Positions 1 to 59,877 of a stretch of 64,000 nt of DNA are shown here, piece by piece (the first letter of the stretch is position 1; each line of letters begins with the position of its first letter). The position numbers and the translations under genes were made by a program. A model generated the notes under the pieces. That model did no database searches. It was not told where the DNA came from and saw nothing but the letters and a program-made list of their open reading frames with translations. The stretch is from the NCBI GenBank assembly GCA_041651015.1, contig JBAZKA010000001.1:205158-269157 (forward strand). Direction: 5' to 3'. The DNA is from Patescibacteria group bacterium (GTDB lineage: Bacteria > Patescibacteriota > Patescibacteriia > Magasanikbacterales > GWA2-37-8).

Positions 1-288
1 AAAAATATCCCAAGTGATTATGAAGGTGTGATGGGTGTGCCGATTAGTATTATGGATAAATATAGTCCGGAGCAGTTTATAATTTTAGGAACAAATGATA
101 ATGGTCTTGTTGATGATAAATATAAGAAAACACCAGGTCTAACAAGAGAATTTGTTGACGATTATTACAAAGCTGGCGGTACAGGGGCATATAAGGAAGG
201 CAACCCAACAGCTGGTTATTACGAGAACAACATTGCAAAGATGGCATATAAAAGAATTTTTATAAAGCACAAGAAAGTCAAAAAATAA
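1..288 (+). CDS. DNA adenine methyltransferase, C-terminal fragment (EcoRI-methylase-like phage/plasmid-type family); 5' end outside window
   Basis: The frame is open from nt 1, with no stop before the listed GTG at 28. The C-terminal block ...GVPISIMDKYSPEQFIILG...AYKRIFIKHKK matches, from memory, the conserved tail of pfam13651-like N6-adenine MTases. Stop TAA at 286-288. Confidence 0.45.
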   Translation, partial: KNIPSDYEGVMGVPISIMDKYSPEQFIILGTNDNGLVDDKYKKTPGLTREFVDDYYKAGGTGAYKEGNPTAGYYENNIAKMAYKRIFIKHKKVKK

Positions 289-291
289 ATT

Positions 292-1650
292 ATGAAAAAT
301 AAATTTAAAGAATTTTATCGATATAAGGATAACGAAATAGAAAAAATCTGGAAGGAGTGTATTTTTGTTTTTGATACAAATATTCTTTTAGATCTTTATA
401 GATATAGCAAATCAACCTCAGATAAATTTATCAAAATACTGAAAAAAATAACCCAAGAAGAAAGATTGTGGTTGCCTCACCAAGTAGGTTTAGAATTTAA
501 CAAAAAGAGAATAATTTTGATATCTGACCTGAAGAAATCATATTCTGACATAAAAGAAACTATTGAAAATTCGTTTAATGATGCTCAAAAGAAAATTGAC
601 GATAAATATCACAAAGAACATCCTTTTATAAATTTAAAAGAAATTGAATCAGAAATTGAAAAATGCAAAAAGATCATTTCAAAAACCATAGAAACGAATG
701 AAAAAAGTCATCCCGATTGGTTCAATAAGGATGAAATTTTTGAAGCGATAACAGAAATATTTGAAAATAAAGTTGGAGATGAATATAAAAAAGAAGAACT
801 TTCAAAAATATTTGAAGAAGGAAAGGAAAGATACGCAAACAAGATACCTCCTGGTTATGAAGATTTAAAAAATAAGGAAGATGGTAGAGAATACGGCGAT
901 CTGATTTTATGGTTTCAGATAATTGATATGGCGAAATCATCTAAGAAATCGATTGTTTTTATAACCCGAGATAATAAATCAGATTGGTGGTGGAAACAAT
1001 CAGGAGATACTATCGGTCCTCGACACGAATTAAAATATGAGATAAATAAAAAGGCAGGTGTTGATTTCCATATGTACAGTTCCGAAAAATTTTTAGAGTA
1101 TGCATCAGATTATTACAAAGAAACAGTTGACCAAAAATCAATCAAAGAGGTCAAGAGAATGAGCCGTCTTTTAGAAGAAAAAAATTATATAATGCATAAA
1201 ATGATGAATTTAAAATGGTTTAAGACCCCTTTTGTTCACGAATTTATTATGCAACAGGAAATGCTTAATAAAGAGCTGGCTAATCTTGTTAGAGAGACGC
1301 ACATAGATGAAGAGATTTTATTTGAATTTAGTAGAAATCAAGAAAGAGTTATGCATTTTATAGAACATATTTCAAATGAGGAAAGACCGCACCCTATGAT
1401 GTTTGAGGAGTTGTCTATGCTCAAAGAAAAAATGCAAATAGGATTGTTAGACTTTATGAAATCAAGAGAGATGGATGAGCGTCAAAAAGAATACCTAATG
1501 AGATTTCTTGAAAGAATGAATGAATCCTATATGATGTTAATAAGGTGTGCAGATAAGGAAGGTGTTTTTGAAAAATATTATCATAGAAATAAAATAAATA
1601 ATCATCGGTTGCAAAGATATTTAAGAGATGATGTAGAGTTAGAAAGTTAA
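292..1650 (+). CDS. PIN-like domain protein (predicted nuclease) with ~200-aa Met-rich helical C-terminal domain
   Basis: 452-aa ORF starting 3 nt after the MTase stop. It has PIN-type acidic motifs (FVFDTNILLDL, HQVGLEF, YGDLILWFQ, FITRDNKSDWW). The C-terminal half is predicted helical, with no fold I recognise. Confidence 0.5.
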   Translation: MKNKFKEFYRYKDNEIEKIWKECIFVFDTNILLDLYRYSKSTSDKFIKILKKITQEERLWLPHQVGLEFNKKRIILISDLKKSYSDIKETIENSFNDAQKKIDDKYHKEHPFINLKEIESEIEKCKKIISKTIETNEKSHPDWFNKDEIFEAITEIFENKVGDEYKKEELSKIFEEGKERYANKIPPGYEDLKNKEDGREYGDLILWFQIIDMAKSSKKSIVFITRDNKSDWWWKQSGDTIGPRHELKYEINKKAGVDFHMYSSEKFLEYASDYYKETVDQKSIKEVKRMSRLLEEKNYIMHKMMNLKWFKTPFVHEFIMQQEMLNKELANLVRETHIDEEILFEFSRNQERVMHFIEHISNEERPHPMMFEELSMLKEKMQIGLLDFMKSREMDERQKEYLMRFLERMNESYMMLIRCADKEGVFEKYYHRNKINNHRLQRYLRDDVELES

Positions 1651-1665
1651 ATTATAAACAATAAT

Positions 1666-2835
1666 ATGAAAACCACACTAAAAACCAATATCACGGTCAA
1701 GGATATTTGCGACGGGTTTGTCTATAATGAATTGGAAGGTAAGGGCTTATTTGGTTTGTCCGGCAAGCTCACAATCCAGCCGGAGTATCAGCGTAATTAT
1801 ATTTATGCCTCGGACGGCGGAAAAAGAGAAATGGCCGTTATTGAATCAATCCTCAAAGGTTACCCAATCGGCTTGATATATTTTAATAAAGTTTCTGAAA
1901 ACAATTTGGAAGTTTTGGACGGACAACAACGCATCACCAGCGTCGGGCGTTTCGTCACCGATAAATTTGCCATCAAAGATGAAAATGGCATGGAACAATA
2001 TTTTGGCGGTATGGCCAAAGACAAGAAAGCCAAGATAATGGAAACAAAATTACTTATTTATGAATGTGAAGGAACGGAAAGTCAAATAAAAGAATGGTTT
2101 AAAACGATTAATATCGCCGGTGTTCCGCTCAATAATCAGGAGTTGCTTAATGCTGTGTATTCCGGGCCGTTTGTGACACTTGGCAAGGAGGAATTTAGTA
2201 ATAGCCAAAATGCCAACATACAAAAATGGAGCGCGTATGTATCGGGTAGCGCGAACCGGCAAGATTTTTTGGAATGCGCGCTGGACTGGGTGAGCAAAGG
2301 CAATATCGGAGACTATATGAGCAGTCATCGATTTGATAAAAATATTACCGAGCTGAAAAAATATTTTAACAGCGTAGTTGACTGGGCATCAAGCGTGTTT
2401 ACTGATGTGGAAAGTGAAATGCGCGTATTGGAGTGGGGGAGATTGTACGAAGAGTACCACAAAAAAGCGTATAATTCTGCGAAAGTTTCTGCCGACGTAC
2501 AAAAGCTCTATGCAGATCCGTATATCAAAAATCGTAAAGGCATTTTTGAATATATCTTGGGCGGTTCTATAGACACAAAATTGCTTGAGGTTAGATTTTT
2601 TGATGACGCAACCAAAAAATTGGTATACAAAGAACAAACGACTAAAGCGGAAAAGAAAAGAGAATCTAACTGTCCGGATTGTGCTCTTGGGCATGAGGCA
2701 AATAAAGATAAAATTTGGAAACCAGACGAAATGGACGCCGACCATGTAACTGCGTGGAGCAAGGGAGGAAAAACAGCATCAAAAAATTGCCAGATGTTGT
2801 GTAAGACGCATAATCGAGCAAAGGGGAATCGATAA
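1666..2835 (+). CDS. DUF262 (ParB/GmrSD N-terminal-like) + HNH endonuclease protein
   Basis: Carries the DUF262 motifs IQPEYQRNY and LDGQQRITS. The C-terminus has an HNH motif (CPDCALGHE...[12 protein letters not shown]...[15 protein letters not shown]). 389 aa. Confidence 0.65.
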
Positions 2836-2885
2836 TAAAAAAATTATCAAAGTAAAATTACTAAATTTTTAGGAGGATAAAAAAT

Positions 2886-4298
2886 ATGACAAAAGAAGAA
2901 GTATTAAAAAAAATTAAATATGGTTTAGAAATATCAAGCGAACTTCCTGATCTTGAATTTAAGACTGCGGCGAGCAGCATTCCAAACGATATTTGGAGAA
3001 CTATCTCCGCTTTTGCGAATCGAAGAGGTGGGGGACTTGTTGTGTTCGGAGTTAACCAACAGGAAAACAAGATAACCGGTTGTTTTAATTTAGACCAGAT
3101 GCAAACTAAACTTACGGAATATTTTAATGATAAGATGAGTTTTGTTTTGCGACCGGAATATCACGTGATTGAAGACGGAGGGAAAAATATTTTAGCCGTT
3201 GTTATTCCGGAATGCCCAAAGGATTATATGCCCTGCTATTTTAAACCGATCGGACTTCCAAACGGCGCATATATTCGTGAGGCAAATACCAGTAGGATGA
3301 TTACCGATAATGAATTCAGAACATATGTCGCGACTTCAAAAGAATTTCAATTTGATTTGTCGGAAGCGGTGAATACCGATAAAGACGAAATTTCTACATC
3401 CAAAGTGACAAATCTGCTTGAACAAAGCGAATCTCAGGTGAAAAGAGGAGCGACACATATTATTGATGACACAGTACTTGAAAATTTAGGGATTATTTCC
3501 TCGTTTGATGGTGGGTATAAACCCACTATTGGAGGATATTTAATATTTGCTAAAATAATACCGCAAAACAAAAACCCCTACAATCGGTATACCGTTCGAT
3601 GTATTCGTTATGCTGGAAGCGATCCGTCATCTAAAATTATTGATGCTGTGGACATAACGGGAACGCTTGATTCTCAAATTGATGATGCTTACAAATTTGT
3701 TTTAAAAAATATCGCTAAAGATGCTGTAATTATTGGTACTAAGCGCGTTGAACGCTATGAATATCCTGAAGAAGGCGTTCGAGAATTAATAGCAAACGCC
3801 ATTATTCATCGCGACTATAAAATCATTGAAACATATACCCAAATACGAGTATTTAAAGATAGGATTGAAATAATTAATCCCGGATCTCTTCCACCCGGTG
3901 TTACAGTAGACAATATTAAAGAAGCGCAGTTCAGTCGCAATTCTATGATTGCCGCGAGACTTAAGGATATGCGCTATTTGGAAGAATATGGGCGCGGCAT
4001 TGATATTGTTATAAAGAAAATGTCTGATTGGAATTTACCCGATCCGTTATTTAGAAATTCTGTGAATAGTTTTGAAGCAATTCTTTTGGGCAATACATAC
4101 CGCGAGATTAATGATCGTCAAGCAAAAGTCATCGATGTTTTACTTATAAAAGGACGGCTTACTGTTCACGACTGCCAAAAAATATTAAAAGGAACGCCGA
4201 GGGCAACCATTAACAGCGATCTAAAAAAGTTAAGAGACCTTGGAATTTTGGTGCCAAATGGTGCCTCTGTCAATACATATTATACACTCTCTTTTTAG
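2886..4298 (+). CDS. AlbA_2 (Schlafen-like divergent AAA) / HATPase_c_4 / C-terminal wHTH putative regulator
   Basis: AGGAGG RBS 7 nt upstream. The N-terminus has the AlbA_2 signature (LEFKTAASSIPNDIWRTISAFANRRGGGLVVFGV). The central GRGIDIV motif is typical of the 'RecG C-terminal-like' HATPase domain. 470 aa. Confidence 0.6.
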   Translation: MTKEEVLKKIKYGLEISSELPDLEFKTAASSIPNDIWRTISAFANRRGGGLVVFGVNQQENKITGCFNLDQMQTKLTEYFNDKMSFVLRPEYHVIEDGGKNILAVVIPECPKDYMPCYFKPIGLPNGAYIREANTSRMITDNEFRTYVATSKEFQFDLSEAVNTDKDEISTSKVTNLLEQSESQVKRGATHIIDDTVLENLGIISSFDGGYKPTIGGYLIFAKIIPQNKNPYNRYTVRCIRYAGSDPSSKIIDAVDITGTLDSQIDDAYKFVLKNIAKDAVIIGTKRVERYEYPEEGVRELIANAIIHRDYKIIETYTQIRVFKDRIEIINPGSLPPGVTVDNIKEAQFSRNSMIAARLKDMRYLEEYGRGIDIVIKKMSDWNLPDPLFRNSVNSFEAILLGNTYREINDRQAKVIDVLLIKGRLTVHDCQKILKGTPRATINSDLKKLRDLGILVPNGASVNTYYTLSF

Positions 4299-4451
4299 AG
4301 GCTTTTAGAGGCAATGTCGAAAAGTCGCATAAAATAGGCCTTCCAACAGGTAAAATCAGGTATAGACATTTAAAGGCAATTATTACGAGCTGTTTACAAA
4401 AAGTTGAAAAAACTCTATTTGAAATAAAGAAAAGTAGCATAAAGTGCTAAT

Positions 4452-7642: not shown

Positions 7643-8446
7643 ATGAGTTTAGTTAGTGTCATAATTCCAATATACAATCACGCCGAGGCGCTTGCGCAAA
7701 GCATGCGCACTCTTTTCGTGCAAACGCATCGGCCATTGGAAATCATCGCCATTAACGACGGCAGTACGGATAATGTGGAACCGGTGATTAAAAAAATTCA
7801 TGATTATTGTCATTCCGACCGAGTCCCGAAGGGACGAGTGGAGGAATCCCTTGACGTTTACGCCGCGACAAGGGATTCTTCGGTCGCAACGCTCCCTCAG
7901 AATGACAAGCAACAAATTGCTTTCAAATACATCACTCAAACCAACCAAGGCGCGCCCGCGGCCCGCAATCGCGGTTTTGCCGAATCAGTCGGCGACTTTG
8001 TGATATTTTGGGACGCGGACACCATTGCCCGGCCCGATATGCTTGAGAAAATGCTTTTGGCTCTCACAAATAACCCGCAAGCATCATACGCTTACTCGGA
8101 TTTTCAATTTGGCTGGAAAAAATTTACCGGACGGGAGTTTAATGCCGATGAATTAAGAAAAAATAATTTTATTGATGTTACCTCGCTCATCCGCCGGGCG
8201 GATTTTTGTGGGTTTGATACGACCATCAAACGATTCCAGGATTGGGATTTGTGGCTGACGCTTTTGAAAAAAAATAAAACCGGCGTCTATGTGCCGGAAA
8301 TGCTTTATCAAAAATTGGTAGGCAAACGAAAGGGGATCAGCGGATGGTTACCGCGCATCGCGTTTAATCTGCCGTGGAAATCCGCGTCTGTTCGCCGGTA
8401 TGAGACGGCGAAGAAGATTGTGGAGACGAAGCATGGGCTAAAATAA
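7643..8446 (+). CDS. glycosyltransferase family 2
   Basis: N-terminus VSVIIPIYNHAEALAQSMRTL...INDGSTDN is a classic GT2 signature, and a DAD motif is present. Confidence 0.65.
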   Translation: MSLVSVIIPIYNHAEALAQSMRTLFVQTHRPLEIIAINDGSTDNVEPVIKKIHDYCHSDRVPKGRVEESLDVYAATRDSSVATLPQNDKQQIAFKYITQTNQGAPAARNRGFAESVGDFVIFWDADTIARPDMLEKMLLALTNNPQASYAYSDFQFGWKKFTGREFNADELRKNNFIDVTSLIRRADFCGFDTTIKRFQDWDLWLTLLKKNKTGVYVPEMLYQKLVGKRKGISGWLPRIAFNLPWKSASVRRYETAKKIVETKHGLK

Positions 8447-9782
8447 TGGCAAGAAATATAAACCCGAACACATGAAATAGCGCGGGCGACGTGATATTTA
8501 TTACGAGCAATGCCACGAGCGGCGCGCAGATAACATGCCCGTTAGGGCTTTTTATATGATAAAACGCGGTCATGATAAGCGCAAACCAAATGATGAGCCC
8601 AGTAGCGCCCATCTCGGCCAGAATTTCCAAATACCCCCAGTCAAAATGCGGGGTGGTGATTAATTCGTTGTACACCGGACTCCACACAGTCACTGTGTCG
8701 CCAAGGCCTGTGCCGAATATTGGCGCCGAAGAAATCTTTTCCAGAATTTTGGGCAAGAGCAACATGCGCGAGAGGGAACTCTCTTCAATATGCGGGGCGA
8801 CGATACTGGTGGCGCGCAGTCCGAAATATTCCCAGCCCGGATTAGCTAAACCACCGACCAGAACATGCAAAAATGTGAACCAGCCGAATACGGAAAGCAA
8901 AATCACCGCCGAGTTGATCAGCCATCGGCGCCATAGTGTTTTAGTAAAAGCAAAGCACAAGCCGACGAGCAACGCCAAATAATATATGCGCGTCAGGTTG
9001 ACGGACAATATCGCGGCCGCGGCCGGAAGCGCCATATCGTTCACAAATTCAATTTTTTGTTTGACGCGGGTAATGAAATACAAGGCCACCGGAACAAGCA
9101 AGAGTTGTTCGTTCAAAATCACGCGGAAAAAATTCGCGCCCGTGTCGGTAATTTTACCCCCGCAAACATCGCGGAACCAATGATAATAATTATCTTGCAA
9201 AACAAAAATTCCAAATCCGTACATGAGCGAAGTAAAAACCGTGATCAGTCCGCAACCGATCAGCGCGCCGGCAATCATATTGAAAACTTCGCGTTTGAAT
9301 TTTTCATCGTGAAGCAAATCGCGCAAAGGAAAATAATACAGCAAAAATAAATAGGGGATGAAGTCGGAAATTATCAACGAAAGTACGTGATGGTTGTGAT
9401 AGCCAACGAACGCAGAAATTCCGGCCCAGATAATAAGCGCGAAAATTAGAAGAGATTGCTTCGTCGGCCTTCGGCCTTCTCGCAATGACATAATGAAGTA
9501 GATTCCCACAGACGCAATCAGCAAAAGCGTGCGGAGCGACACCGAACCGACTGAAAGCATATTTCCGCTCCCGCAAAAAATTATTTCACCGGCCACGATG
9601 AGCCAACCCCGCCAATCTTTTTTAATCAGCCAGTACATCGCGAGCGCGAGAACCGCAACCGCGACAATTATGTTCACAATCGAACCCGCGACGAGCGGAG
9701 TGACTGGGGTAAAAAAATACGTAAAAACCCGCACGGCAAAATAACCGGCTAAGTATATAAAAAATTTTTTCGGTGAGAACAT
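8364..9782 (-). CDS. O-antigen ligase / Wzy-like polytopic membrane protein
   Basis: 472 aa with at least 10 predicted TM helices and the large periplasmic loop pattern of the O-antigen-polymerase family. Its 3' end overlaps the convergent GT2 gene by 83 nt. Confidence 0.45.
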   Translation of the reverse strand: MFSPKKFFIYLAGYFAVRVFTYFFTPVTPLVAGSIVNIIVAVAVLALAMYWLIKKDWRGWLIVAGEIIFCGSGNMLSVGSVSLRTLLLIASVGIYFIMSLREGRRPTKQSLLIFALIIWAGISAFVGYHNHHVLSLIISDFIPYLFLLYYFPLRDLLHDEKFKREVFNMIAGALIGCGLITVFTSLMYGFGIFVLQDNYYHWFRDVCGGKITDTGANFFRVILNEQLLLVPVALYFITRVKQKIEFVNDMALPAAAAILSVNLTRIYYLALLVGLCFAFTKTLWRRWLINSAVILLSVFGWFTFLHVLVGGLANPGWEYFGLRATSIVAPHIEESSLSRMLLLPKILEKISSAPIFGTGLGDTVTVWSPVYNELITTPHFDWGYLEILAEMGATGLIIWFALIMTAFYHIKSPNGHVICAPLVALLVINITSPALFHVFGFIFLAIILAHASSPQSSSPSHTGEQTRISTAD

Positions 9783-9784
9783 AA

Positions 9785-10702
9785 TTATTCAAACCTCGTC
9801 AAATTGCGAGCGCCATTAATAAAGCTTTTGGCATCCATGGGCTTTTTGCCCTCGGGCTGAACTTCAATCGCCTCAATGGCGGAATTGGCCCCACAACCCA
9901 CGTATAAATGCCCGTTTTGAGCCAAAATTTGCCCCTCAGAGAGGTTTTTCGGGTCAGCGGGTGTGATTACCGATAACTTCAGTCTTTTGCCCTCAAAAGT
10001 TGTCCACAGGCCCGGCCAAGGGGTCATGGCCCGGTATTGATTATAGATGTTTTGAGCGGGCTGGGAAAAGTCCACGTGGCCGTCATCGCGGGTGAAAATT
10101 TTGCAAAAAGTCGCCCCGTCGTGATTCTGTTCAACGGGAATAATTTCACCGGAAATGTATTTTGGCGTTTCGCGCAAAAATAATTCCGAGGCCACGATAG
10201 CCAAACGAGTAAATAATTCTTTTTGTGTTTCATCCGGAAGAATAGAAAGTTTTTGCATGGCGATGATCGGCCCGTGATCCATTTTTGCGTCCATGAGCAT
10301 GAGCGTGACGCCGGTTTCAGTTTCGCCATTCATAATTGCAGTTTGAATAGGGGAGGCACCGCGCAGTTTAGGCAAAATTGAACCGTGCAAGTTCACGGTT
10401 TTGTGTTTGGGCAAATCCAACAATCTTTGTGGAATAATAAAACCATACTCGGCGACAACGCCAAGATCAGCTTCGCTTAAAATCGGCGCGTCAAATTCTT
10501 TGAGCGAGGCCGGCTGTAAAATTTCCACGCCAAGAGTTTCCGCGAAAGTTTTTACCGCGGATTTTTGCATTTCCTGTTTGCGTCCAATCGGCTGATCGGG
10601 CGACGTAATCACCGCGAGAATTTTGTAGCTCGCGTCGTTCGCAATCGCTTTCAGAACCGTGGCGGCAAATTCACCTGTGCCGTAAAAAACTATTTTAGTC
10701 AT
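9785..10702 (-). CDS. fmt: methionyl-tRNA formyltransferase
   Basis: MTKIVFYGTGEFAATVLKAI...HGSILPKLRGASPIQ (formyltransferase SLLP-like motif). The likely start is the internal Met (MTKIV); the ORF track extends to 10714. Confidence 0.85.
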   Translation of the reverse strand: MTKIVFYGTGEFAATVLKAIANDASYKILAVITSPDQPIGRKQEMQKSAVKTFAETLGVEILQPASLKEFDAPILSEADLGVVAEYGFIIPQRLLDLPKHKTVNLHGSILPKLRGASPIQTAIMNGETETGVTLMLMDAKMDHGPIIAMQKLSILPDETQKELFTRLAIVASELFLRETPKYISGEIIPVEQNHDGATFCKIFTRDDGHVDFSQPAQNIYNQYRAMTPWPGLWTTFEGKRLKLSVITPADPKNLSEGQILAQNGHLYVGCGANSAIEAIEVQPEGKKPMDAKSFINGARNLTRFE

Positions 10703-10863
10703 GATAATTAGCAATATTTTTTAAAAGCGACGTTTACAATATCTTTGAGCAACATAACGCAGGCGCGCTCGGAGCGCGCCGAGTTCGAAGCGCGTCCACC
10801 CAGGGCGGACGACGCTGTTTGCGAAAAGATATTGTAAATGGAGCGCGCCGAGTGCCAAGTCGT

Positions 10864-11349
10864 TTATTTTTTCTCAAAAGTATATAAATCTTTTGCCTTA
10901 TCAATAAACAAAACTCCGCGCAAGTGGTCGGCCTCATGCTGGATGGCGCGGGCGAAAAAATCTTCAGCCACAAAATTTAACGGTTGGCCGTTTTCATTCC
11001 AGGCTTTCACTTTAATTTTTTTGTAGCGTTTAACTTTACCCCAAAGATTTGGCACGGACAAACATCCTTCCTCGCCCCAGGCCGTAGCCAAAGTAGCCTT
11101 GGTCCAAACCGGATTCACCAAAACCAAATCAATTTTTTTGTTTTCGGAAAATCGCTTATTGATCACGCACACGGCAATTGATTCGCCGATTTGTGGCGCG
11201 GCAATGCCCACGCCGTCGCTCGCGTATAAAGTATCAATTAAATTTTTTGTTAATTTTTTAAATTCCGGCGACGCCAAAAACTCCGGCTTGGCCAGCGGAG
11301 CGATTTTACGTAAAATAGGATTTGGGTCAATGACGATTTGGGTCACCAT
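10864..11349 (-). CDS. def: peptide deformylase
   Basis: The three deformylase motifs are present: GVGIAAPQIG, EGCLSVP and HEADHLRG. The start is taken at MVTQIV; the ORF track extends to 11436. Confidence 0.85.
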   Translation of the reverse strand: MVTQIVIDPNPILRKIAPLAKPEFLASPEFKKLTKNLIDTLYASDGVGIAAPQIGESIAVCVINKRFSENKKIDLVLVNPVWTKATLATAWGEEGCLSVPNLWGKVKRYKKIKVKAWNENGQPLNFVAEDFFARAIQHEADHLRGVLFIDKAKDLYTFEKK

Positions 11350-11519
11350 ATATTTGGGGGCCTGTCGCCGAATGCCATTTCTGCTGCAAATTTTAAATTT
11401 CGGCCAAAATCGCCTTAAAATTTCTCGGCTTATCAATTCAGATAGGCCTCAAAATTTATGCGTCGATTTTGTCTCAAAATTTTCAATTTTCGCTACGAAA
11501 GCGCATTCGCCGACCGACC

Positions 11520-13391
11520 CTATGAAATTGATAAAATGTGATTCGGGTTGGGGTCAACCTTACAATCATCAGGAACAATCGCCGCTAGTTCTTTTAGCGA
11601 TTTTTTGTAATTCGCGTAGTTGAACTTCAGCAAAATAACCTCGTGGTATAAATTGCGCATTCTCGGCGGATTGGCCGGGATATGACTGTAAATCATAACA
11701 TCTTTTTTGTGTGTAGTCAAGCTGTTTAGGGCGCGAAAAAGCTGTTCAGCATTCTCGCTAGCTTTGTTCGCGGTGGCGCCGGCCACGATAATTCGCGCCA
11801 GATAATTGTGAGGCGGATAGCCGAAAATTTTTCTCTCGGCTATTTCCGATTCGTAAAATGATTTCGGGTCATAGACGCCCTGATAAACGCGATGTTCCGG
11901 ATGTTGGGTTTGGATAAATAACTTTGCGTCCGGCGCGAGAGCCAATTGCGCGCGGCGAAGCTTGAGCCAAAGAAATTCCAAAGCGCGGTATTCGGCGGCC
12001 GCGAGCGCGGTGTCCGGATCGGCCATCACAAATATATCAATCTTTTTCCAATCCAATCTGGAATAAGCAAAATCCGTGCCCACAAAAATAATTTTTTCAT
12101 CACTCGGAAAACTTTCCGGCAAATTCGCGGTTTCTTTGTCTATGGTAATAATTTTCGCCGAGGGAAATTTATTTTTTAGCGCCGTGGCCACGCCTTCAAT
12201 GCCCAGTCCCATCAAACGATAATTCGCGCCCCCGCATTTGGGGCAATTGTCGGCAAAACGCACCGATGTTTTGCAGTACAAACATTTAAGTTCAATCCCG
12301 CGTTCATAATATGTTAAAGGGCGATGGCATTTATCACAGCGAAAAATATTTCCGCAATCAGCGCACACCATTCCGCCCGAAGTACCGCGCCGATTCAAAT
12401 GAATAAAAGTTTGGCCTTTGTTTGCTTCAATTGCTTTGATAATTTCTTCAGCTAGGATGCCGGCTCCGCCGCCTCTTTTTTCCGCGAGCGCGTTGACAAA
12501 TATCGGCGAAGGCTTGGTAATTTTTGTCAGTTCGCCGATTAAATCATAAATTTTGTGTTCGGCAAAATAATATGATTCAACAGACGGCGCAGACGCCACC
12601 AGAAATAATTCCGCGCTCGTGTGTTTGGTGAGAGCAAGGGCAGCGTCCCGCGTGTGATAGCGCGGGGCCATGTCCCAACTTTTATAATCAGGCGAGCCCT
12701 CGTCGTCCATAATAATGCGCGTCAAATTATGCCAGGGCAGAAACAGAGCTTTGCGCGTGCCAATGACAATAATATTTTTTGAGTTGCGCACCCGAATCCA
12801 GTTGTCAGAATATTGCTTATCACCGTCATCACCTTTTAGAATAATTATTTCGTTAGAAATATCCGCGGGTAATAATTCCTGAATTTTTTCCGGATCATTC
12901 ACGTCCGGAGTCAGAATCAAAACTTGTCCATCGGCTTTGGCCAATTCCGATAAATATTTTTTCTTTTCATCTAAATTGTTGTATAGCCAAAGTTTTGGTT
13001 TTTGGGGTTTTCCCTCGCGTGTTTCCACGGCCAAAAGAGTTTCCGTCAAAGTTTTCAATTTGCGTTTTTGCATGGGCAAAAGCGCGCACTTTAAAATAAA
13101 GCCGAGCGAAGCCCGGTAGAAATCCGATAGTTCGGAGTAAAAATTTAACAGATTTTCCGTGATGAGCGGTTCAGCCAAAACAATTTCGGAAATCGGTTTT
13201 AATTTATTATCCTTGATATCGGAATTATCCGAGAGAGAATAGACAATGCCGAATTCGTCTTTACCGCGCAAAGGTATTTTTACCAGCTGGCCGACTCGGA
13301 TTAAACTTTTTTGTTCCACGCTGATCAAATAATCCAAACCTTTGATTTTGTTTGGCAGGCGTCTAATCGGAATAACCAGCGCGTGCGTCAT
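11520..13391 (-). CDS. priA: primosomal protein N' (PriA) homologue with degenerate Walker A
   Basis: Collinear with PriA: an N-terminal 3'-DNA-binding domain, IGTRKALF, IMDDEGSPDYK (cf. DEEHDSSYK), and Zn-finger Cys pairs CADCG...CDKCH...CLYCK...CPKCGG. The P-loop position reads NNLDEKKKY instead of GxTGSGKT. Confidence 0.7.
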   Translation of the reverse strand: MTHALVIPIRRLPNKIKGLDYLISVEQKSLIRVGQLVKIPLRGKDEFGIVYSLSDNSDIKDNKLKPISEIVLAEPLITENLLNFYSELSDFYRASLGFILKCALLPMQKRKLKTLTETLLAVETREGKPQKPKLWLYNNLDEKKKYLSELAKADGQVLILTPDVNDPEKIQELLPADISNEIIILKGDDGDKQYSDNWIRVRNSKNIIVIGTRKALFLPWHNLTRIIMDDEGSPDYKSWDMAPRYHTRDAALALTKHTSAELFLVASAPSVESYYFAEHKIYDLIGELTKITKPSPIFVNALAEKRGGGAGILAEEIIKAIEANKGQTFIHLNRRGTSGGMVCADCGNIFRCDKCHRPLTYYERGIELKCLYCKTSVRFADNCPKCGGANYRLMGLGIEGVATALKNKFPSAKIITIDKETANLPESFPSDEKIIFVGTDFAYSRLDWKKIDIFVMADPDTALAAAEYRALEFLWLKLRRAQLALAPDAKLFIQTQHPEHRVYQGVYDPKSFYESEIAERKIFGYPPHNYLARIIVAGATANKASENAEQLFRALNSLTTHKKDVMIYSHIPANPPRMRNLYHEVILLKFNYANYKKSLKELAAIVPDDCKVDPNPNHILSIS

Positions 13392-13395
13392 AGGT

Positions 13396-14184
13396 TTAAA
13401 TAAATTCCGCGGTCAAATAGCCCACGCCAAACGGCGCTTCATACGCCAGCTCGCGGTAATCATAATGCATTTTTTGTAAAATGCCGAGCAAGATTAACAG
13501 TGAACGCAGACCGCATTCTGACGCGTTCTTTATCAGTTTTTCATCCAAATTTAGAATACCGGAAATATTACCGGCCATGAGGAGCTCGCGAATTTTTTTG
13601 TCAAACTCGGCGCCGGCTTTGTTGAATCCGGCCGGTGCGTCCGTGGACAAGGCGTGCGACATATCACCTGAAGCAATTACAGCTACACGGCGGTTGCTAA
13701 GTAAAATCTGTTCTTTAATTAACGCGCCAAAATCCAAATGCGTTTTGAAATCCAAGTCGCAAAAACCAAGTTGGACGATTTTCGCGCCGGTTAATTTACC
13801 GGCCAGCATGATGAGCGGCACTGATGAACCATGGTCCAAGCGTGGTTCGGAGATCAGAGTGGCGGGAAAATGTTTGCGTTTGGTCGCGTCGCGCAGGCGG
13901 TGCGTCATCTCAAAATCACCGTTAAACTCGCAACTTGTTTCCAAGTCGCCAAAGTCTTTAAAGTCAGCCGTGTATTTGACGCAAGAGTTAACAGTAAACA
14001 CATCCGGGAAAAAACTTCCGTGCGGGGAAATTATCAAAATTACTTCGGGCTGGGCCGCATATAAATTTCTCTCCAATTCTTTGAAGGCGGAAGAAGTCTT
14101 GGATAATTTTTTAAGTTCAGTCTTGCCAATGGACGGAACAATAAGCGGGGGATGGGGAGTGAAAGCGCTAAAAACTAAAGACAT
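13396..14184 (-). CDS. LigB/MEMO-superfamily protein (class III extradiol dioxygenase subunit B-like)
   Basis: Motifs ISPHGSF, LDHGSSVPL and SGDMSHAL, i.e. the His-rich metal-site pattern of the LigB/DODA/Memo fold. Confidence 0.45.
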   Translation of the reverse strand: MSLVFSAFTPHPPLIVPSIGKTELKKLSKTSSAFKELERNLYAAQPEVILIISPHGSFFPDVFTVNSCVKYTADFKDFGDLETSCEFNGDFEMTHRLRDATKRKHFPATLISEPRLDHGSSVPLIMLAGKLTGAKIVQLGFCDLDFKTHLDFGALIKEQILLSNRRVAVIASGDMSHALSTDAPAGFNKAGAEFDKKIRELLMAGNISGILNLDEKLIKNASECGLRSLLILLGILQKMHYDYRELAYEAPFGVGYLTAEFI

Positions 14185-24750: not shown

Positions 24751-24773
24751 AGAGATATAATTCGGCAAATATG

Positions 24774-24817
24774 GTTGCGGTTAAGCGGTGTCATTGGTTA
24801 CATCGCTTAACCGCAAC
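24774..24817. repeat. perfect 14-bp inverted repeat GTTGCGGTTAAGCG-N16-CGCTTAACCGCAAC
   Basis: Read directly; lies between the xer start and the FtsQ-like gene end. Confidence 0.6.
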
Positions 24818-24818
24818 G

Positions 24819-24847
24819 GATTAAACGACCCGCAAGGTCGTTTAATC
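24819..24847. repeat. perfect 12-bp inverted repeat GATTAAACGACC-CGCAA-GGTCGTTTAATC (29 bp)
   Basis: Read directly; lies 1 nt after the first hairpin. Confidence 0.6.
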
Positions 24848-24909
24848 TATGTTATACGACGTTAGATATATCATAATACCTATATATACTTCTGTCAAAC
24901 TTACGCCCC

Positions 24910-40376: not shown

Positions 40377-40517
40377 CTATTCTACGACTTCTTCAACGTT
40401 CTCATGCTTGCAGCCACATTCACACGTCTCATCGCATTGGCATCCTTCGCCGCCGCAAGAGCATGTTTCATCGCACTTGCATTCCGGTCCGCAGTCACAT
40501 GTTTTTTCTTCAATCAT
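40377..40517 (-). CDS. unlisted 46-aa Cys-rich metallothionein-like small protein (MIEEKTCDCGPECKCDETCSCGGEGCQCDETCECGCKHENVEEVVE)
   Basis: Hand-translated on the minus strand: ATG at 40517, TAG at 40377-40379. It has 12 Cys in six regularly spaced C-x-C pairs. The +strand 63-aa His/Ser/Pro ORF in the track is its mirror image. A TTGTCC-N17-TATACT promoter lies upstream. Confidence 0.6.
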   Translation of the reverse strand: MIEEKTCDCGPECKCDETCSCGGEGCQCDETCECGCKHENVEEVVE

Positions 40518-40595
40518 AGAGAAAAATTATGAATAAATCGACTCTTACGGTCGTGGTTAAAGTATATCAAATATAAAGACCCGGGACAAGGTAAG

Positions 40596-40623
40596 TAAAA
40601 ACCCCGTTTTCACGGGGTTTTTA
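40596..40623. terminator. bidirectional intrinsic terminator AAAAACCCCG-ttttca-CGGGGTTTTT
   Basis: GC stem flanked by an A5 run and a T5 run, immediately after atpC. Confidence 0.65.
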
Positions 40624-40627
40624 TAAA

Positions 40628-41059
40628 TTATTTTATTTCCGGTTTTATCTTCCGGTATTTGTTGCCAACTTTCAAGCGGATCATAGCTCTATCCAAAGTC
40701 GCCTGTAAGGCCGCGTATTCTTGACTGTCCATGGTTCGCTCTTCTTTCATCAGCTTCTCAGCGCGCTGTCTCGCCTCCTCGGCGCGGGCCACGTCAATTT
40801 CCTCGGCGCGCTCGGCCGTGTCAGCCAAAATAATCACGGAATTATCCGGTCTTATTTCCGCGAATCCACCCGTCACCGCGTGCGGATATTCAACATTATT
40901 TTTTTTACAAATCATTTCACCAGGTTTGAGCAAAGTGACGAGCGGAACATGATTGGGCAAGACAGTAATTTCACCATCAGCCGTGTTCAGTGTCACCTGG
41001 TCAATTTCGTCTTGAAAGACGATTTTTTCCGGAGTAATGATTTGAAATTTAAGAGGCAT
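40628..41059 (-). CDS. atpC: F1 ATP synthase epsilon subunit
   Basis: MPLKFQIITPEKIVFQDEIDQVTL...; last gene of the atp operon. Confidence 0.85.
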   Translation of the reverse strand: MPLKFQIITPEKIVFQDEIDQVTLNTADGEITVLPNHVPLVTLLKPGEMICKKNNVEYPHAVTGGFAEIRPDNSVIILADTAERAEEIDVARAEEARQRAEKLMKEERTMDSQEYAALQATLDRAMIRLKVGNKYRKIKPEIK

Positions 41060-41060
41060 A

Positions 41061-41199
41061 CCCAGTAGAAGAATTTTGAATTATTCGTAATTTGTCGGTG
41101 AATCAAATTTAATTTGATGTGTATATTTTCGTTTTGCCAATAGAAAATTTTATTTGATTTTGCCCGTTAGGCAAAATCGTTCAAAATTTCTCTACTGGG
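41061..41199. repeat. 139-bp element bounded by 19-bp inverted repeats (CCCAGTAGAAGAATTTTGA ... TCAAAATTTCTCTACTGGG, 17/19) with an internal 9-bp hairpin
   Basis: Read directly. It fills the whole atpD-atpC spacer, from 1 nt after the atpC ATG to 5 nt before the atpD stop. Internal hairpin GATTTTGCC-CGTTA-GGCAAAATC. Confidence 0.55.
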
Positions 41200-41203
41200 A
41201 TAG

Positions 41204-42580
<1,377 letters not shown>

Positions 42581-46016: not shown

Positions 46017-46334
<318 letters not shown>

Positions 46335-57123: not shown

Positions 57124-59877
57124 CTAATTATGCCGATCAAGAACCTCCTTAACAATTTCTCGGTATTTATCAACGATACAATAATCATCCTTCAATTCGC
57201 CGATTCCTCCGTCAGTTTTGAAACTAACAATCTGTCTTAAATGGTCGCTATCTCTTTTGGTTATGAATTGGGATATATTGCTTAAATATCTGCCAGCTTG
57301 GCCATCATCATCTCCAACACCTTTTTGAAATAATTTTCCCTTAATTTCTTCGCGAGAAAAAGTCCTTGATTCTGAAAGCAATATTTCTAAAAATTTAATT
57401 AATCGCGGGGTTAGAGTAGTATCTCGAGATAATGTTTCTTGAAGTAAGCCTTCTAACTCTTTATCAGAATAGTTGCCCCTATCTAAAGAAAAAGTATTTC
57501 TTTCATTTTCAAATTCATCCGATGAATGATCGTCTTTTATTTCCAATAGCATTATATATGCCTTCGCCAGATCATCCTCAATAGACTTTGTGTTATTGAA
57601 GTCGACCTTCTTGAAAAGGAGAGAATATCTATCATTATATGTCCAATCTGAAAATTCCCGTTTATCTCTTATAAAATTTATCACTGATGCATACCGATTA
57701 TCCATGACCTGAATATGCAAAATAATAGCTAACTCTTTTAAAAAATATGTTGATTTACTGAAATAAATACAAGGCACATAAGTCTTTTCGGCATATTTAT
57801 CGTCGCCGTATAATTCTTTGCTGCCATAAAAATTATAATAATCTTCTTTGCAGCGACCCCAAGCAGTAGTTTTCTCTTCTACATCTACATCATCAGCGCG
57901 GTCAAGAAATTTAGTTTTCATTTTTTCTTCTAAATTTAGCTTATATTGGTCGATAAGCGTCAATTCTTCTTCAGTAAACTCATTTTCATTATTATCGCTT
58001 TCTTCCGCGATAGAGATAACTTCCTCATTTTTAATATCACCATCCGTAATTTGCCAAACTTCTTTCAATTTATCAATAATTGATTTCTGCCTTTCTTTAA
58101 TTGCAAGCGGCGTCCATTCTTTATATTTGCTTAATTCTTGGGTCATATTAAAGGCAGACTGTCTGTCTTTGAGTGTTTCGCCCGAATAGATTTTGAGTTT
58201 TTCGTCATAAGGTTTATTTGAGGCAGTTTGATTCTTTGATTTATTCTTTTCTTTTACCCCGCCAATGAGGAGAGTAAGGTTGCCTATGGTATTCACCAGC
58301 TTTAACTGTTCACCTACAGTAAATCTGTCCGTCCAATATTTAGCAGTCATTGTCTGTGGTAAAATATGCTCAATTTGAGTACAATTAAAATCAATGCTTT
58401 TCTCCACTGAATCATCCGTTAATAAATACTCGTATTTTGACAAGGCGTATCTGCACCATGATTGGCCATAACAATCTCCTTGTATTGAGTCCATGAAACG
58501 CATCAGAACCCCACTCCTGCGAATAGTATCATCTATATATTCTTTAATTTCAGCGATTGATTTGTTTTTATTTACATAGTCTCTAATTAGAGCCAGTGTC
58601 GGGTTTTTTATCTTAGCAACATTATAGCCGGCGATCCAAAATAAAGCATACATTTTTTCTAATGCAAATATCAATTCCTCAAAATCAGACTTGGAATAAT
58701 TATTTCTGCGGGCTGATATTAACACAGGCAACCATTCCCAATGGTTAATATACCAAAGAAGTTTAAGATTGTTTTTTGCCTCATTTGATAATTCGTCAAA
58801 CTTTTTCCCTTTTATTAAAGAAGCATAACAATCAGCTGAGGATTTCCATTCTCTAATAAAATCCTCGGAAAGCAAATTTTTACTTTTGATATAGTTGATA
58901 ATTTCTTTATATAGATTTTTTTTGGGCTTAACCCCAATCATCGCCGTCCAGTGGTGTCGCAGTAGCTCCTGCATTTCGATGTCCTCACCGGCGATACCTT
59001 TTATGTACTTGTAGCCTTCAAGAAGCACCTGCTTTTCTATCTCAAAATCCTTTTCCGATTTTGGATTTAGGCGATTATGTTTTTTAATTTCCTCCTGCAA
59101 TCTTTTAAGTAAAAAATTCTTCAGCAATTCGTCGGTTTCCAACCCTTCACCACGCTGGTTAATTGTTTCAAAAATTGTATAAGCGGACGATAAATCCTCT
59201 GCTATTATATTAACAACCAAAGTTTTATCCATGAAATAATTGTACAGACTCTCCAAATAATGTATTGCGTCCTTTTCATTGTTTACAAGTTCACTTTCCT
59301 TATTATTAATATTTTCCTGCAAGTATTGGATGGCATTAATATAATGAAGAGCCAACGAAGTATTTTTTATATCGCGCAAAGCACCAATTTTCTTTAATAC
59401 GTAATTTTCAAAATCTGATCTATCCTCTGGGCGTATCTGAAGACGAAATTTACCGTCCTTACAGATAAACTCATCGTGAATTTTTTCAGATAGACCGGCT
59501 CTTCCGTGCTCGGCAAAATAATCTCTTAACACTGCTAAAAAAATAGTGATTGTTGTTAATCTTTGCTGGCCGTCGACTAGCTCAAAATCATTATTGTCTT
59601 GTTTTTTTATAAGGATCATCGACCCAAGAAAATAATTTTCCTCATTATTATCATAGGCCGTTGTTATATCATTCCAAAAATCATCAATATTTTCTTTTCC
59701 CCACCTGTAAGGCCTTTGATAATCTGGAATGCTAAAATAGCTATCTTGGTCACCGATTAAACTTTTGATATTCTTTTCTAAGGGTTGAATCTTCATACGA
59801 AATTCCAGATAATTTATAAGTATCAAACCTTGTCCTTCCCTGTCTTGTGCATTTTCAATTCCTTTACAGAAAGCCAA
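57124..59877 (-). CDS. GmrSD-like type IV restriction enzyme homologue (DUF262 + DUF1524) with ~320-aa uncharacterised C-terminal extension
   Basis: IPDYQRPYRW and VDGQQRLTT (DUF262); CTQIEHILPQT (DUF1524 His-Me finger). The likely start is MKIQPLEK at 59796. 890-917 aa. Confidence 0.65.
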   Translation of the reverse strand: MAFCKGIENAQDREGQGLILINYLEFRMKIQPLEKNIKSLIGDQDSYFSIPDYQRPYRWGKENIDDFWNDITTAYDNNEENYFLGSMILIKKQDNNDFELVDGQQRLTTITIFLAVLRDYFAEHGRAGLSEKIHDEFICKDGKFRLQIRPEDRSDFENYVLKKIGALRDIKNTSLALHYINAIQYLQENINNKESELVNNEKDAIHYLESLYNYFMDKTLVVNIIAEDLSSAYTIFETINQRGEGLETDELLKNFLLKRLQEEIKKHNRLNPKSEKDFEIEKQVLLEGYKYIKGIAGEDIEMQELLRHHWTAMIGVKPKKNLYKEIINYIKSKNLLSEDFIREWKSSADCYASLIKGKKFDELSNEAKNNLKLLWYINHWEWLPVLISARRNNYSKSDFEELIFALEKMYALFWIAGYNVAKIKNPTLALIRDYVNKNKSIAEIKEYIDDTIRRSGVLMRFMDSIQGDCYGQSWCRYALSKYEYLLTDDSVEKSIDFNCTQIEHILPQTMTAKYWTDRFTVGEQLKLVNTIGNLTLLIGGVKEKNKSKNQTASNKPYDEKLKIYSGETLKDRQSAFNMTQELSKYKEWTPLAIKERQKSIIDKLKEVWQITDGDIKNEEVISIAEESDNNENEFTEEELTLIDQYKLNLEEKMKTKFLDRADDVDVEEKTTAWGRCKEDYYNFYGSKELYGDDKYAEKTYVPCIYFSKSTYFLKELAIILHIQVMDNRYASVINFIRDKREFSDWTYNDRYSLLFKKVDFNNTKSIEDDLAKAYIMLLEIKDDHSSDEFENERNTFSLDRGNYSDKELEGLLQETLSRDTTLTPRLIKFLEILLSESRTFSREEIKGKLFQKGVGDDDGQAGRYLSNISQFITKRDSDHLRQIVSFKTDGGIGELKDDYCIVDKYREIVKEVLDRHN

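Follow-up and report, generated by a model that had tools for sequence, protein, structure and literature searches.

What fills the space between atpD and atpC, the genes for the beta and epsilon subunits of F1, in the genome of an uncultured Patescibacteria bacterium, and what does it do there? In the 64,000-nt stretch of DNA analysed here (the window), the atp operon lies on the minus strand in the order atpB-E-F-H-A-G-D-C, and atpD (41204..42571, minus strand, 455 aa) is separated from an intact atpC (40628..41059, minus strand, 143 aa, PF02823 and PF00401) by a 144-nt spacer (41060-41203) that is almost entirely taken up by a sequence bounded by inverted repeats. The sequence-only reading of this locus left a choice between a MITE insertion and an unusually large structure for translational coupling or attenuation.

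The window DNA was matched to a 129-kb metagenome contig (ENA ERZ27247363, k141_2297594), which extended the analysed sequence to 82.6 kb, an estimated one tenth or so of a typical genome of the phylum. The AtpC protein is identical to GenBank MFA5127591.1, its best named relatives come from Patescibacteria or Magasanikbacteria MAGs, and its best matches were 80 % identical in a genome-contig collection and 60 % identical in a metagenome-contig collection. The 285-nt gap after atpC contains a 46-aa Cys-rich, metallothionein-like ORF (40377-40517, minus strand, MIEEKTCDCGPECKCDETCSCGGEGCQCDETCECGCKHENVEEVVE) without a Pfam match, and the gap in relatives contains other small ORFs (206, 104, 45 and 43 aa). 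Elsewhere on the contig, positions 1-4300 of the window together with positions 8798-14007 of locus L168 form a defence-type gene cluster comprising an EcoRI-like methylase, a PIN_12/PIN_8 protein, GmrSD_N/HNH and SLFN-AlbA_2/HATPase_c_4, and a second GmrSD gene lies at about 57124-59877.

Analysis of the spacer confirmed a 139-bp unit (41061..41199; the element, its parts and its flanking repeats are given without strand) that is AT-rich and non-coding, with stops closing all six frames. Each end is a 25-nt terminal inverted repeat (TIR), one adjoining atpC (41061..41085, plus strand CCCAGTAGAAGAATTTTGAATTATT) and the other adjoining atpD (41175..41199, reverse complement CCCAGTAGAGAAATTTTGAACGATT). 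The two arms pair at 21/25 positions (84 % complementary), extending the 19-bp repeats described from the sequence, which are indeed 17/19 complementary over the outermost 19 nt. The perfect 9-bp internal hairpin noted earlier was also found (41156..41178), with arms at 41156-41164 (GATTTTGCC) and 41170-41178 (GGCAAAATC) around a 5-nt loop, and a second, 8-bp hairpin (41102..41118) has arms at 41102-41109 (ATCAAATT) and 41111-41118 (AATTTGAT) separated by 1 nt. The placement of the left repeat 1 nt from the atpC start codon (41057-41059) held, while the gap between the right repeat and the atpD stop codon (41204-41206), thought to be 5 nt, is 4 nt. On the mRNA the atpD-side repeat thus forms the 5' arm of an outer stem, starting 5 nt after the atpD UAA and leaving 4 nt between the stop codon and the stem, and the atpC-side repeat forms the 3' arm, ending 1 nt before the atpC AUG.

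The 20-nt arm occurs at two sites only in the window, which are the two TIRs, compared to 0.01 sites expected. The 139-nt element folds at −39.2 kcal/mol, whereas shuffled sequences fold at −14.8 ± 2.8 kcal/mol (z = −8.6; 0 of 200 shuffles equal). The opposite strand folds equally well (−41.9 kcal/mol), and an RNA-level strand bias was rejected, indicating that the symmetry is a property of the DNA, as expected of TIRs, rather than of an RNA selected on one strand.

Comparison with the closest relatives, whose junctions were obtained via their AtpC proteins (76-98 % identical to that of the window), revealed that the element is absent from all of the approximately eight found (L162, L163, L172, L082, L164, L165, L173, L174 and L176). 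Six of these have atpD-atpC spacers of just 1-8 nt: a single T (TAA-T-ATG) in L163 and L172 (AtpC 90 and 91 % identical, respectively), TTCGATT in L162 (97 %), TTTTT in L082 (80 %), GAAATATT in L164 (80 %) and GCT in L165 (76 %). The coding flanks of the relatives align to the base at both ends of the element, and these empty junctions indicate an insertion into an originally tight one; judged from these spacers, the ancestral atpD-atpC junction is tight, at 1-8 nt. The same comparison disposes of the conserved structural RNA that the sequence-only reading had allowed for as an outcome of examining sister genomes. A lineage-specific, non-coding, TIR-bounded insertion is therefore well supported by the aligned sequences.

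The sequence at the insertion site suggests how the element might have entered. On the gene strand the arrangement is TAA-C-TAT[element]TAT-G, with a possible target-site duplication consisting of ATA (TAT on the gene strand) at 41058..41060, which adjoins the element and overlaps the AT of the atpC ATG, and at 41200..41202 at the other end of the element. If the 3 bp TAT, or TA with an additional base, had been duplicated on insertion, the junction would once have read TAA-CT-ATG, a spacer length in the range of the relatives. Since the spacer of L176 starts with CTATC after the stop codon and that of L162 is TTCGATT, the left TAT may instead be ancestral spacer, and the duplication is ambiguous.

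The remaining relatives showed that the junction is occupied by other sequences as well. The L176 group is the nearest lineage by DNA (approximately 87 % nucleotide identity over the operon, 19 contigs, AtpC 97 % identical), and its 82-nt spacer contains a 68-nt double hairpin of a GTCAT type, GTCATGCTGAAC...TTCAGGATGACA (L176 9925-9992), that is also found in L173 (849-917). L174, whose AtpC is 98 % identical, has a single hairpin resembling the NTS repeats at the same junction (1797-1825, GTCATTCCCGCGAAGGCGGGAATCC). Apart from one mismatch, the sequence in L174 (TGTCATTCCCGCGAAGGCGGGAATCCAG) matches the NTS consensus of Neisseria, CGTCATTCCCGCGMAVGCGGGAATCYRG (PMC11893778). An origin of the window element from the GTCAT element of its nearest relatives was rejected, as there is no similarity between the two. 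Four junction states are thus seen in this clade, empty, window element, GTCAT hairpin pair and single NTS-like hairpin, and on these sequences the clade shows a junction that turns over fast.

Analysis of 160 Patescibacteria loci placed this turnover in a broader setting. The median atpD-atpC spacer was 32 nt, with 72 spacers of at least 50 nt and 47 of at least 100 nt, so that the 10-30 nt regarded as usual in the sequence-only reading does not describe the phylum, and the window spacer is unusual only in comparison to its closest relatives. Most of the long spacers fold into long hairpins of unrelated sequence, several of which repeat in their own or other genomes. Long spacers were equally frequent between atpG and atpD, suggesting that hairpin passengers are typical of these operons in general and weakening the case for a hairpin requirement specific to the atpD-atpC junction. 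Two further long atpD-atpC spacers had contents of their own. The 288-nt spacer of L156 contains an 84-aa ORF (2222-2476) with a GIY-YIG domain (PF01541, E = 4.7e-15), which may represent an Ssn-like nuclease gene inserted at this junction, and the 294-nt spacer of L090 (2198-2491) consists of about four copies of the GC-rich palindrome GGGGAGGTTAGGTGGGGTA and its complement and is REP/BIME-like (z = −9.0).

Some of the hairpins in long spacers belong to a GTCAT...GATC class resembling the NTS/SRM repeats that are targeted by Ssn GIY-YIG nucleases (PMC11893778); such repeats in Patescibacteria are absent from the main text of that paper. Hairpins of this class occupy the atpD-atpC junction in L174, L176 and L173 and the atpB-atpE spacer of the window itself, where a 69-nt double hairpin, TGTCATGCTGAACGGAGTGAAGCATC...GATCCTTCGCTTCGCTCAGGATGACA (46264-46334, z = −7.5), belongs to the same family as the atpD-atpC element of L176 and L173. 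This family is also present in L009 and L147 and shows compensatory changes in its inner stems, and the copy at 46264-46334 is absent from the nearest relative L176, where the spacer is 35 nt. Further single GTCAT...GATC units are intergenic, at window coordinates −2636 and −2534 (in L168) and at 7907 on the minus strand, and none of these sequences fits the strict SRM regular expression. The class is thus multicopy in this genome, in contrast to the CCCAGTAG element. Membership of the window element in the NTS/SRM group was rejected: it is four to five times longer, has no GTCAT frame and does not match the published SRM pattern (a hairpin HGTCWY...RNCYNB of approximately 30 nt), which has 0 matches in the 82.6-kb contig.

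Two other intergenic regions of the window also form strong hairpins. A TIR-bounded spacer of about 106 bp (10733-10838), with 20-nt arms that are 90 % complementary and a GC-rich interior, lies between genes annotated as formyltransferase and peptide deformylase (9785-10714 and 10864-11436), and its region folds at −60.5 kcal/mol over 171 nt (z = −4.1). The 141-nt intergenic region 24769-24909 contains two adjacent near-perfect hairpins (z = −5.4), one with arms at 24774-24791 and 24800-24817 (94 % complementary) and the other formed by a 13-bp stem that precedes it on the minus strand.

Known RNA classes did not account for the element. Rfam gave no match in the whole window at the gathering score, and in the region it gave only sub-threshold matches to miRNA-like hairpins at E ≤ 10; no tRNA or tmRNA was found in the window. 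No terminator-like site was found within 41060-41203, whereas a terminator-like GC hairpin with a T run directly 3' of atpC (40595..40624) marks the end of the operon, and we rejected the element as an intrinsic terminator or attenuator on these grounds. The notion of a conserved regulatory or structural RNA was refuted by the absence of the element from relatives, the equal folding of both strands and the lack of an Rfam match.

When all fetched loci (approximately 950 kb from Patescibacteria) were searched for paired inverted repeats whose ends resemble CCCAGTAG, a single related element emerged, a 121-bp sequence in a Moranbacteria MAG (L160 3862-3982) located upstream of an intact leuS. 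Its TIRs, CCCGGTAGTAGAACTTCGAC and CCCGGTAGTGAAACTTCGAC, are paired at 18/20 positions, each arm is identical to an arm of the window element at 15/20 positions, and both elements share an AG/GA swap between arms at positions 10-11. The L160 element is flanked by TATG on both sides, compared to TAT on both sides of the window element, although only 3 bp are involved in the latter case and CTAT(C) also occurs in L176. It ends 1 nt before the leuS ATG, in the same CTACYGGG-T-ATG context as at atpC. The interiors of the two elements are unrelated, judged by the AG/GA marker they face opposite ways with respect to the downstream gene, and Rfam gave no usable match to the L160 copy. Removal of the L160 element and one TATG leaves a leader of approximately 27 nt after a TAGAGT box, as in the relatives L021 and L139. 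Upstream of leuS, positions 3795-3835 of L160 and the leaders of L021, L139, L037, L017, L143 and others share a conserved promoter-like pattern, which in many Moranbacteria-type loci reads CTTGAAAAAA, about 14 nt, TA(G/C/A)AGT and about 25 nt before the ATG.

Although an arm identity of 15/20 is not rare by itself, with 23 chance matches in the data set, we treated the two elements as one family based on the rarity of the combined features. Inverted-repeat windows followed by TATG numbered 4 of 4445 in the 950 kb, and an HMM of the four arms scored its own arms at 15-17 bits compared to at most 6.7 bits for all other sequences. The family TIR can be written CCCRGTAG(W)(AG/GA)AAYTTYGA. Provisionally, with two known members (n = 2), the elements are taken to form a small family that has not been recorded before and that prefers, or survives at, T|ATG sites. 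Multiple copies, which the sequence-only reading had named as the prediction of a MITE, were found only to this extent: blastn-short, nhmmer, regular-expression and TIR-HMM searches found the element once only in the 82.6 kb of its own contig, and L160 was the only related copy in the approximately 950 kb of relatives' loci. Three scans of viral contigs gave one chance 20-mer within a phage ORF and no paired-TIR pattern, and no IS or transposase with matching ends was found in any of the sequences searched (the 82.6 kb, the approximately 950 kb of loci and the viral contigs).

MITEs are defined as elements of 50-800 bp with TIRs and without coding capacity (PMC11602168; reviewed in PMC3184786 and PMC10969869). 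The window element resembles them in its size of 139 bp, its lack of a transposase gene, its TIRs longer than 10-15 bp and the empty sites in relatives. A target-site duplication of 2-10 bp is also expected of a MITE, and here the candidate is the 3-bp TAT. The term MITE-like is used in place of MITE in the strict sense, given one copy in 82.6 kb, no parent IS found and an ambiguous duplication. Of the two explanations first proposed for this locus, the insertion is upheld by its absence from relatives, the clean flanks and the L160 member, and the conserved regulatory RNA falls with its absence from relatives, its symmetrical folding and the lack of an Rfam match; the MITE alternative is the better of the two, though only partly proven. 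Taken as a whole, the data are probably best explained by a non-autonomous MITE-like DNA insertion that is co-transcribed in the atp operon and leaves the atpC initiation region buried. The element would have landed in a former 1-8-nt atpD-atpC junction of a Patescibacteria (CPR) genome, and both copies suggest that T|ATG sites are the insertion targets and that a duplication of 3-4 bp would restore the start codon.

What the insertion might do to atpC depends on how translation starts in this organism. Shine-Dalgarno-like motifs were found for about 7 of the 50 genes in the window, and typical starts consist of open A/U-rich sequence ending in T, such as AATAAATT-ATG. At atpC, in contrast, positions −20 to +6 have a predicted mean unpaired probability of 0.23, the third lowest of the 50 genes, most of which have values of about 0.4-0.55. 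The predicted outer stem spans stop+5 to start−2 as a helix of approximately 20 bp with one G-U and one A-C pair, its arm comprises the 25 nt upstream of the atpC AUG, and UAA and AUG lie at the helix base. Occlusion of the atpC initiation region by this stem, as a by-product of the insertion, is a sound prediction from the fold. Because the initiation region would be buried in an organism nearly devoid of Shine-Dalgarno motifs, translation of atpC probably requires either that ribosomes complete atpD or that the stem is processed.

We propose the following course of events, in which every effect on atpC expression is inferred from the predicted structure. The element would be transcribed within the atp operon mRNA, as it contains no predicted terminator and that of the operon is located after atpC. 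Initiation at atpC would be low unless the stem is opened from its base by a ribosome that stops at the atpD UAA, 4 nt away. Such a ribosome should melt the outermost base pairs and release the nucleotides beside the AUG, which would be coupling of the RNA-unfolding type. Alternatively, an RNase specific for double strands could cleave the helix; being nearly perfect over 20 bp, it is a plausible substrate for RNase III, cleavage by which would give atpC a short open leader, and no RNase III signature motif was found in the 82.6 kb, which is about one tenth of a typical genome of the phylum. By both routes epsilon would still be produced, probably in smaller amounts than beta. The beta:epsilon ratio in F1 is 3:1.

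Previous work has shown that termination-reinitiation in E. coli and Haloferax is nearly lost at a distance of about 20 nt (PMC10666635), and an insert of 144 nt is therefore expected to disrupt it. Relatives with 1-8-nt spacers could use the adjacency of the two codons, and the TIR helix would return UAA and AUG to its base. Coupling by RNA unfolding has been reviewed for the hairpin of f1 genes VII and IX, for rpmI-rplT and for MS2 coat-lysis (PMC12548453). Coupling cannot be a property of the family, since the L160 copy is located in a 5' leader without an upstream ORF, and at atpC it would be at most a fortunate consequence of the insertion.

These considerations bear on a different explanation of the hairpin, namely that it is an exapted regulatory structure, kept since it sets the beta:epsilon ratio or as a processing or stability barrier after atpD, which would make translation of atpC strictly dependent on, and lower than, that of atpD. 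The position of the stem, from stop+5 to start−2 with the atpC initiation region buried, is as such a role would have it, hairpins are very common in Patescibacteria atpD-atpC spacers (most of the 72 of 160 that are at least 50 nt long fold well below their shuffles), close relatives have other hairpins at the same junction, and the RNA-unfolding systems provide precedents (PMC12548453). However, six close relatives do without any hairpin, with the other hairpins at the junction the ATG is still preceded by an open A/U-rich leader, atpG-atpD spacers are equally often long, the folding has no strand bias, and the element has no orthologues in which covariation could appear. We consider exaptation unlikely on balance. 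An own function, in the form of an internal promoter driving atpC independently or of a small RNA gene, is far less probable still. The element does contain a σ70-like match on the gene strand (TTGCCT, 16 nt, TAAAAT; 41174-41147; 9/12), and Correia elements are known to create promoters (PMC2649163), but the match is weak, the number of promoter-like matches in the region (6 compared to 2.7 ± 1.7) is unremarkable in AT-rich DNA, no Rfam match was obtained, no terminator lies in or after the element before atpC, and the relatives lack conservation.

The mode of insertion also allows for readings other than transposition. A palindrome could have arisen by template switching or repair, or the spacer could have been imported by homologous recombination from an unsampled relative, in which case the likeness to L160 would reflect convergence or a shared mechanism that does not use a transposase. 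Insertion without a TIR transposase would fit the single copy in 82.6 kb, the missing parent IS, the ambiguous duplication and a clade that swaps different hairpins in and out of one junction; we nonetheless regard it as quite improbable, given that the interior of the element is unique sequence without a duplicate of flanking DNA and that L160 shares TIR sequence, asymmetry, flanks and ATG position at an unrelated locus in a distant lineage. The sequence derives from one metagenome contig assembled by MEGAHIT, which raises the question of a chimeric or palindromic mis-join. Such an artefact is exceedingly improbable, however, as the element lies mid-contig, has a unique interior and clean junctions against conserved coding flanks, and has a relative in an independent assembly (L160).

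A MITE-like insertion of this kind can be compared with several known systems. It shares with bacterial MITEs its size, TIRs longer than 15 bp, lack of coding capacity, intergenic location, presence/absence polymorphism, a short, if ambiguous, flanking direct repeat and similarity confined to the TIRs, and differs in having one copy in 82.6 kb, no cognate IS found and two known members. The best functional analogue is provided by the Correia elements (CREE/NEMIS) of Neisseria, which are roughly 100-150 bp in size. They too are TIR-bounded, located beside or between genes and co-transcribed, and RNase III binds their RNA hairpins and cuts or protects them, altering expression of neighbouring genes (PMC2649163). 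In contrast, Correia elements belong to a different phylum and have hundreds of copies, TA duplications, IHF sites and promoter-forming ends, of which the window element has shown none.

The RNA-unfolding systems (f1 VII/IX, rpmI-rplT and MS2; PMC12548453) likewise have a helix that ends just upstream of a start codon with the stop codon within reach, at 4 nt in the window, and that only a ribosome completing the upstream ORF can open. Those systems are conserved parts of their operons, whereas the window element is a recent arrival that sister genomes lack, and its coupling is a prediction. REP/BIME and ERIC/IRU sequences (PMC3184786) are also operon palindromes that change the relative expression of cistrons through mRNA structure. 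REP units differ in being 20-40 nt, GC-rich and mobilised by RAYT transposases, compared to 139 bp of AT-rich sequence with long TIRs, and ERIC elements are of similar size but are unrelated and confined to enterobacteria. At malE-malF, a REP/BIME palindrome has a stabiliser role.

In its anatomy the element is a small TIR element of an ordinary kind and of modest importance, notable mainly for ending one base before a start codon. The literature searched contained no relevant paper linking MITE-like elements and Patescibacteria, in which such elements are essentially undescribed, and passengers of this kind are not expected to be cheap in the streamlined genomes of this phylum. The four-state junction constitutes a natural experiment, in which a tightly coupled gene pair can be compared with the same pair separated by inserts of 50-140 nt, given the loss of reinitiation beyond about 20 nt (PMC10666635). 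In both known cases the element adjoins a start codon, and the organisms concerned make little use of Shine-Dalgarno motifs, which makes initiation with a helix flush against the AUG testable.

A bolder proposal, which we offer as a long shot, is that the CCCRGTAG elements are Patescibacteria-wide mobile hairpins that target T|ATG start codons, with a duplication that regenerates the codon, and are tolerated or useful there as portable translational control modules. If this were true, pairing of the TIRs would fold the insert away, placing stop and start side by side again at an operon junction and giving structure-gated coupling, and in a 5' leader the helix would stand flush against the AUG of an mRNA without a Shine-Dalgarno motif. 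Such modules could also help to explain why intercistronic spacers filled with hairpins are common in CPR operons. If start-codon targeting or structure-gated coupling proved to be true, the importance of the element would rise above the modest level of one more small TIR element, a new family of a known kind.
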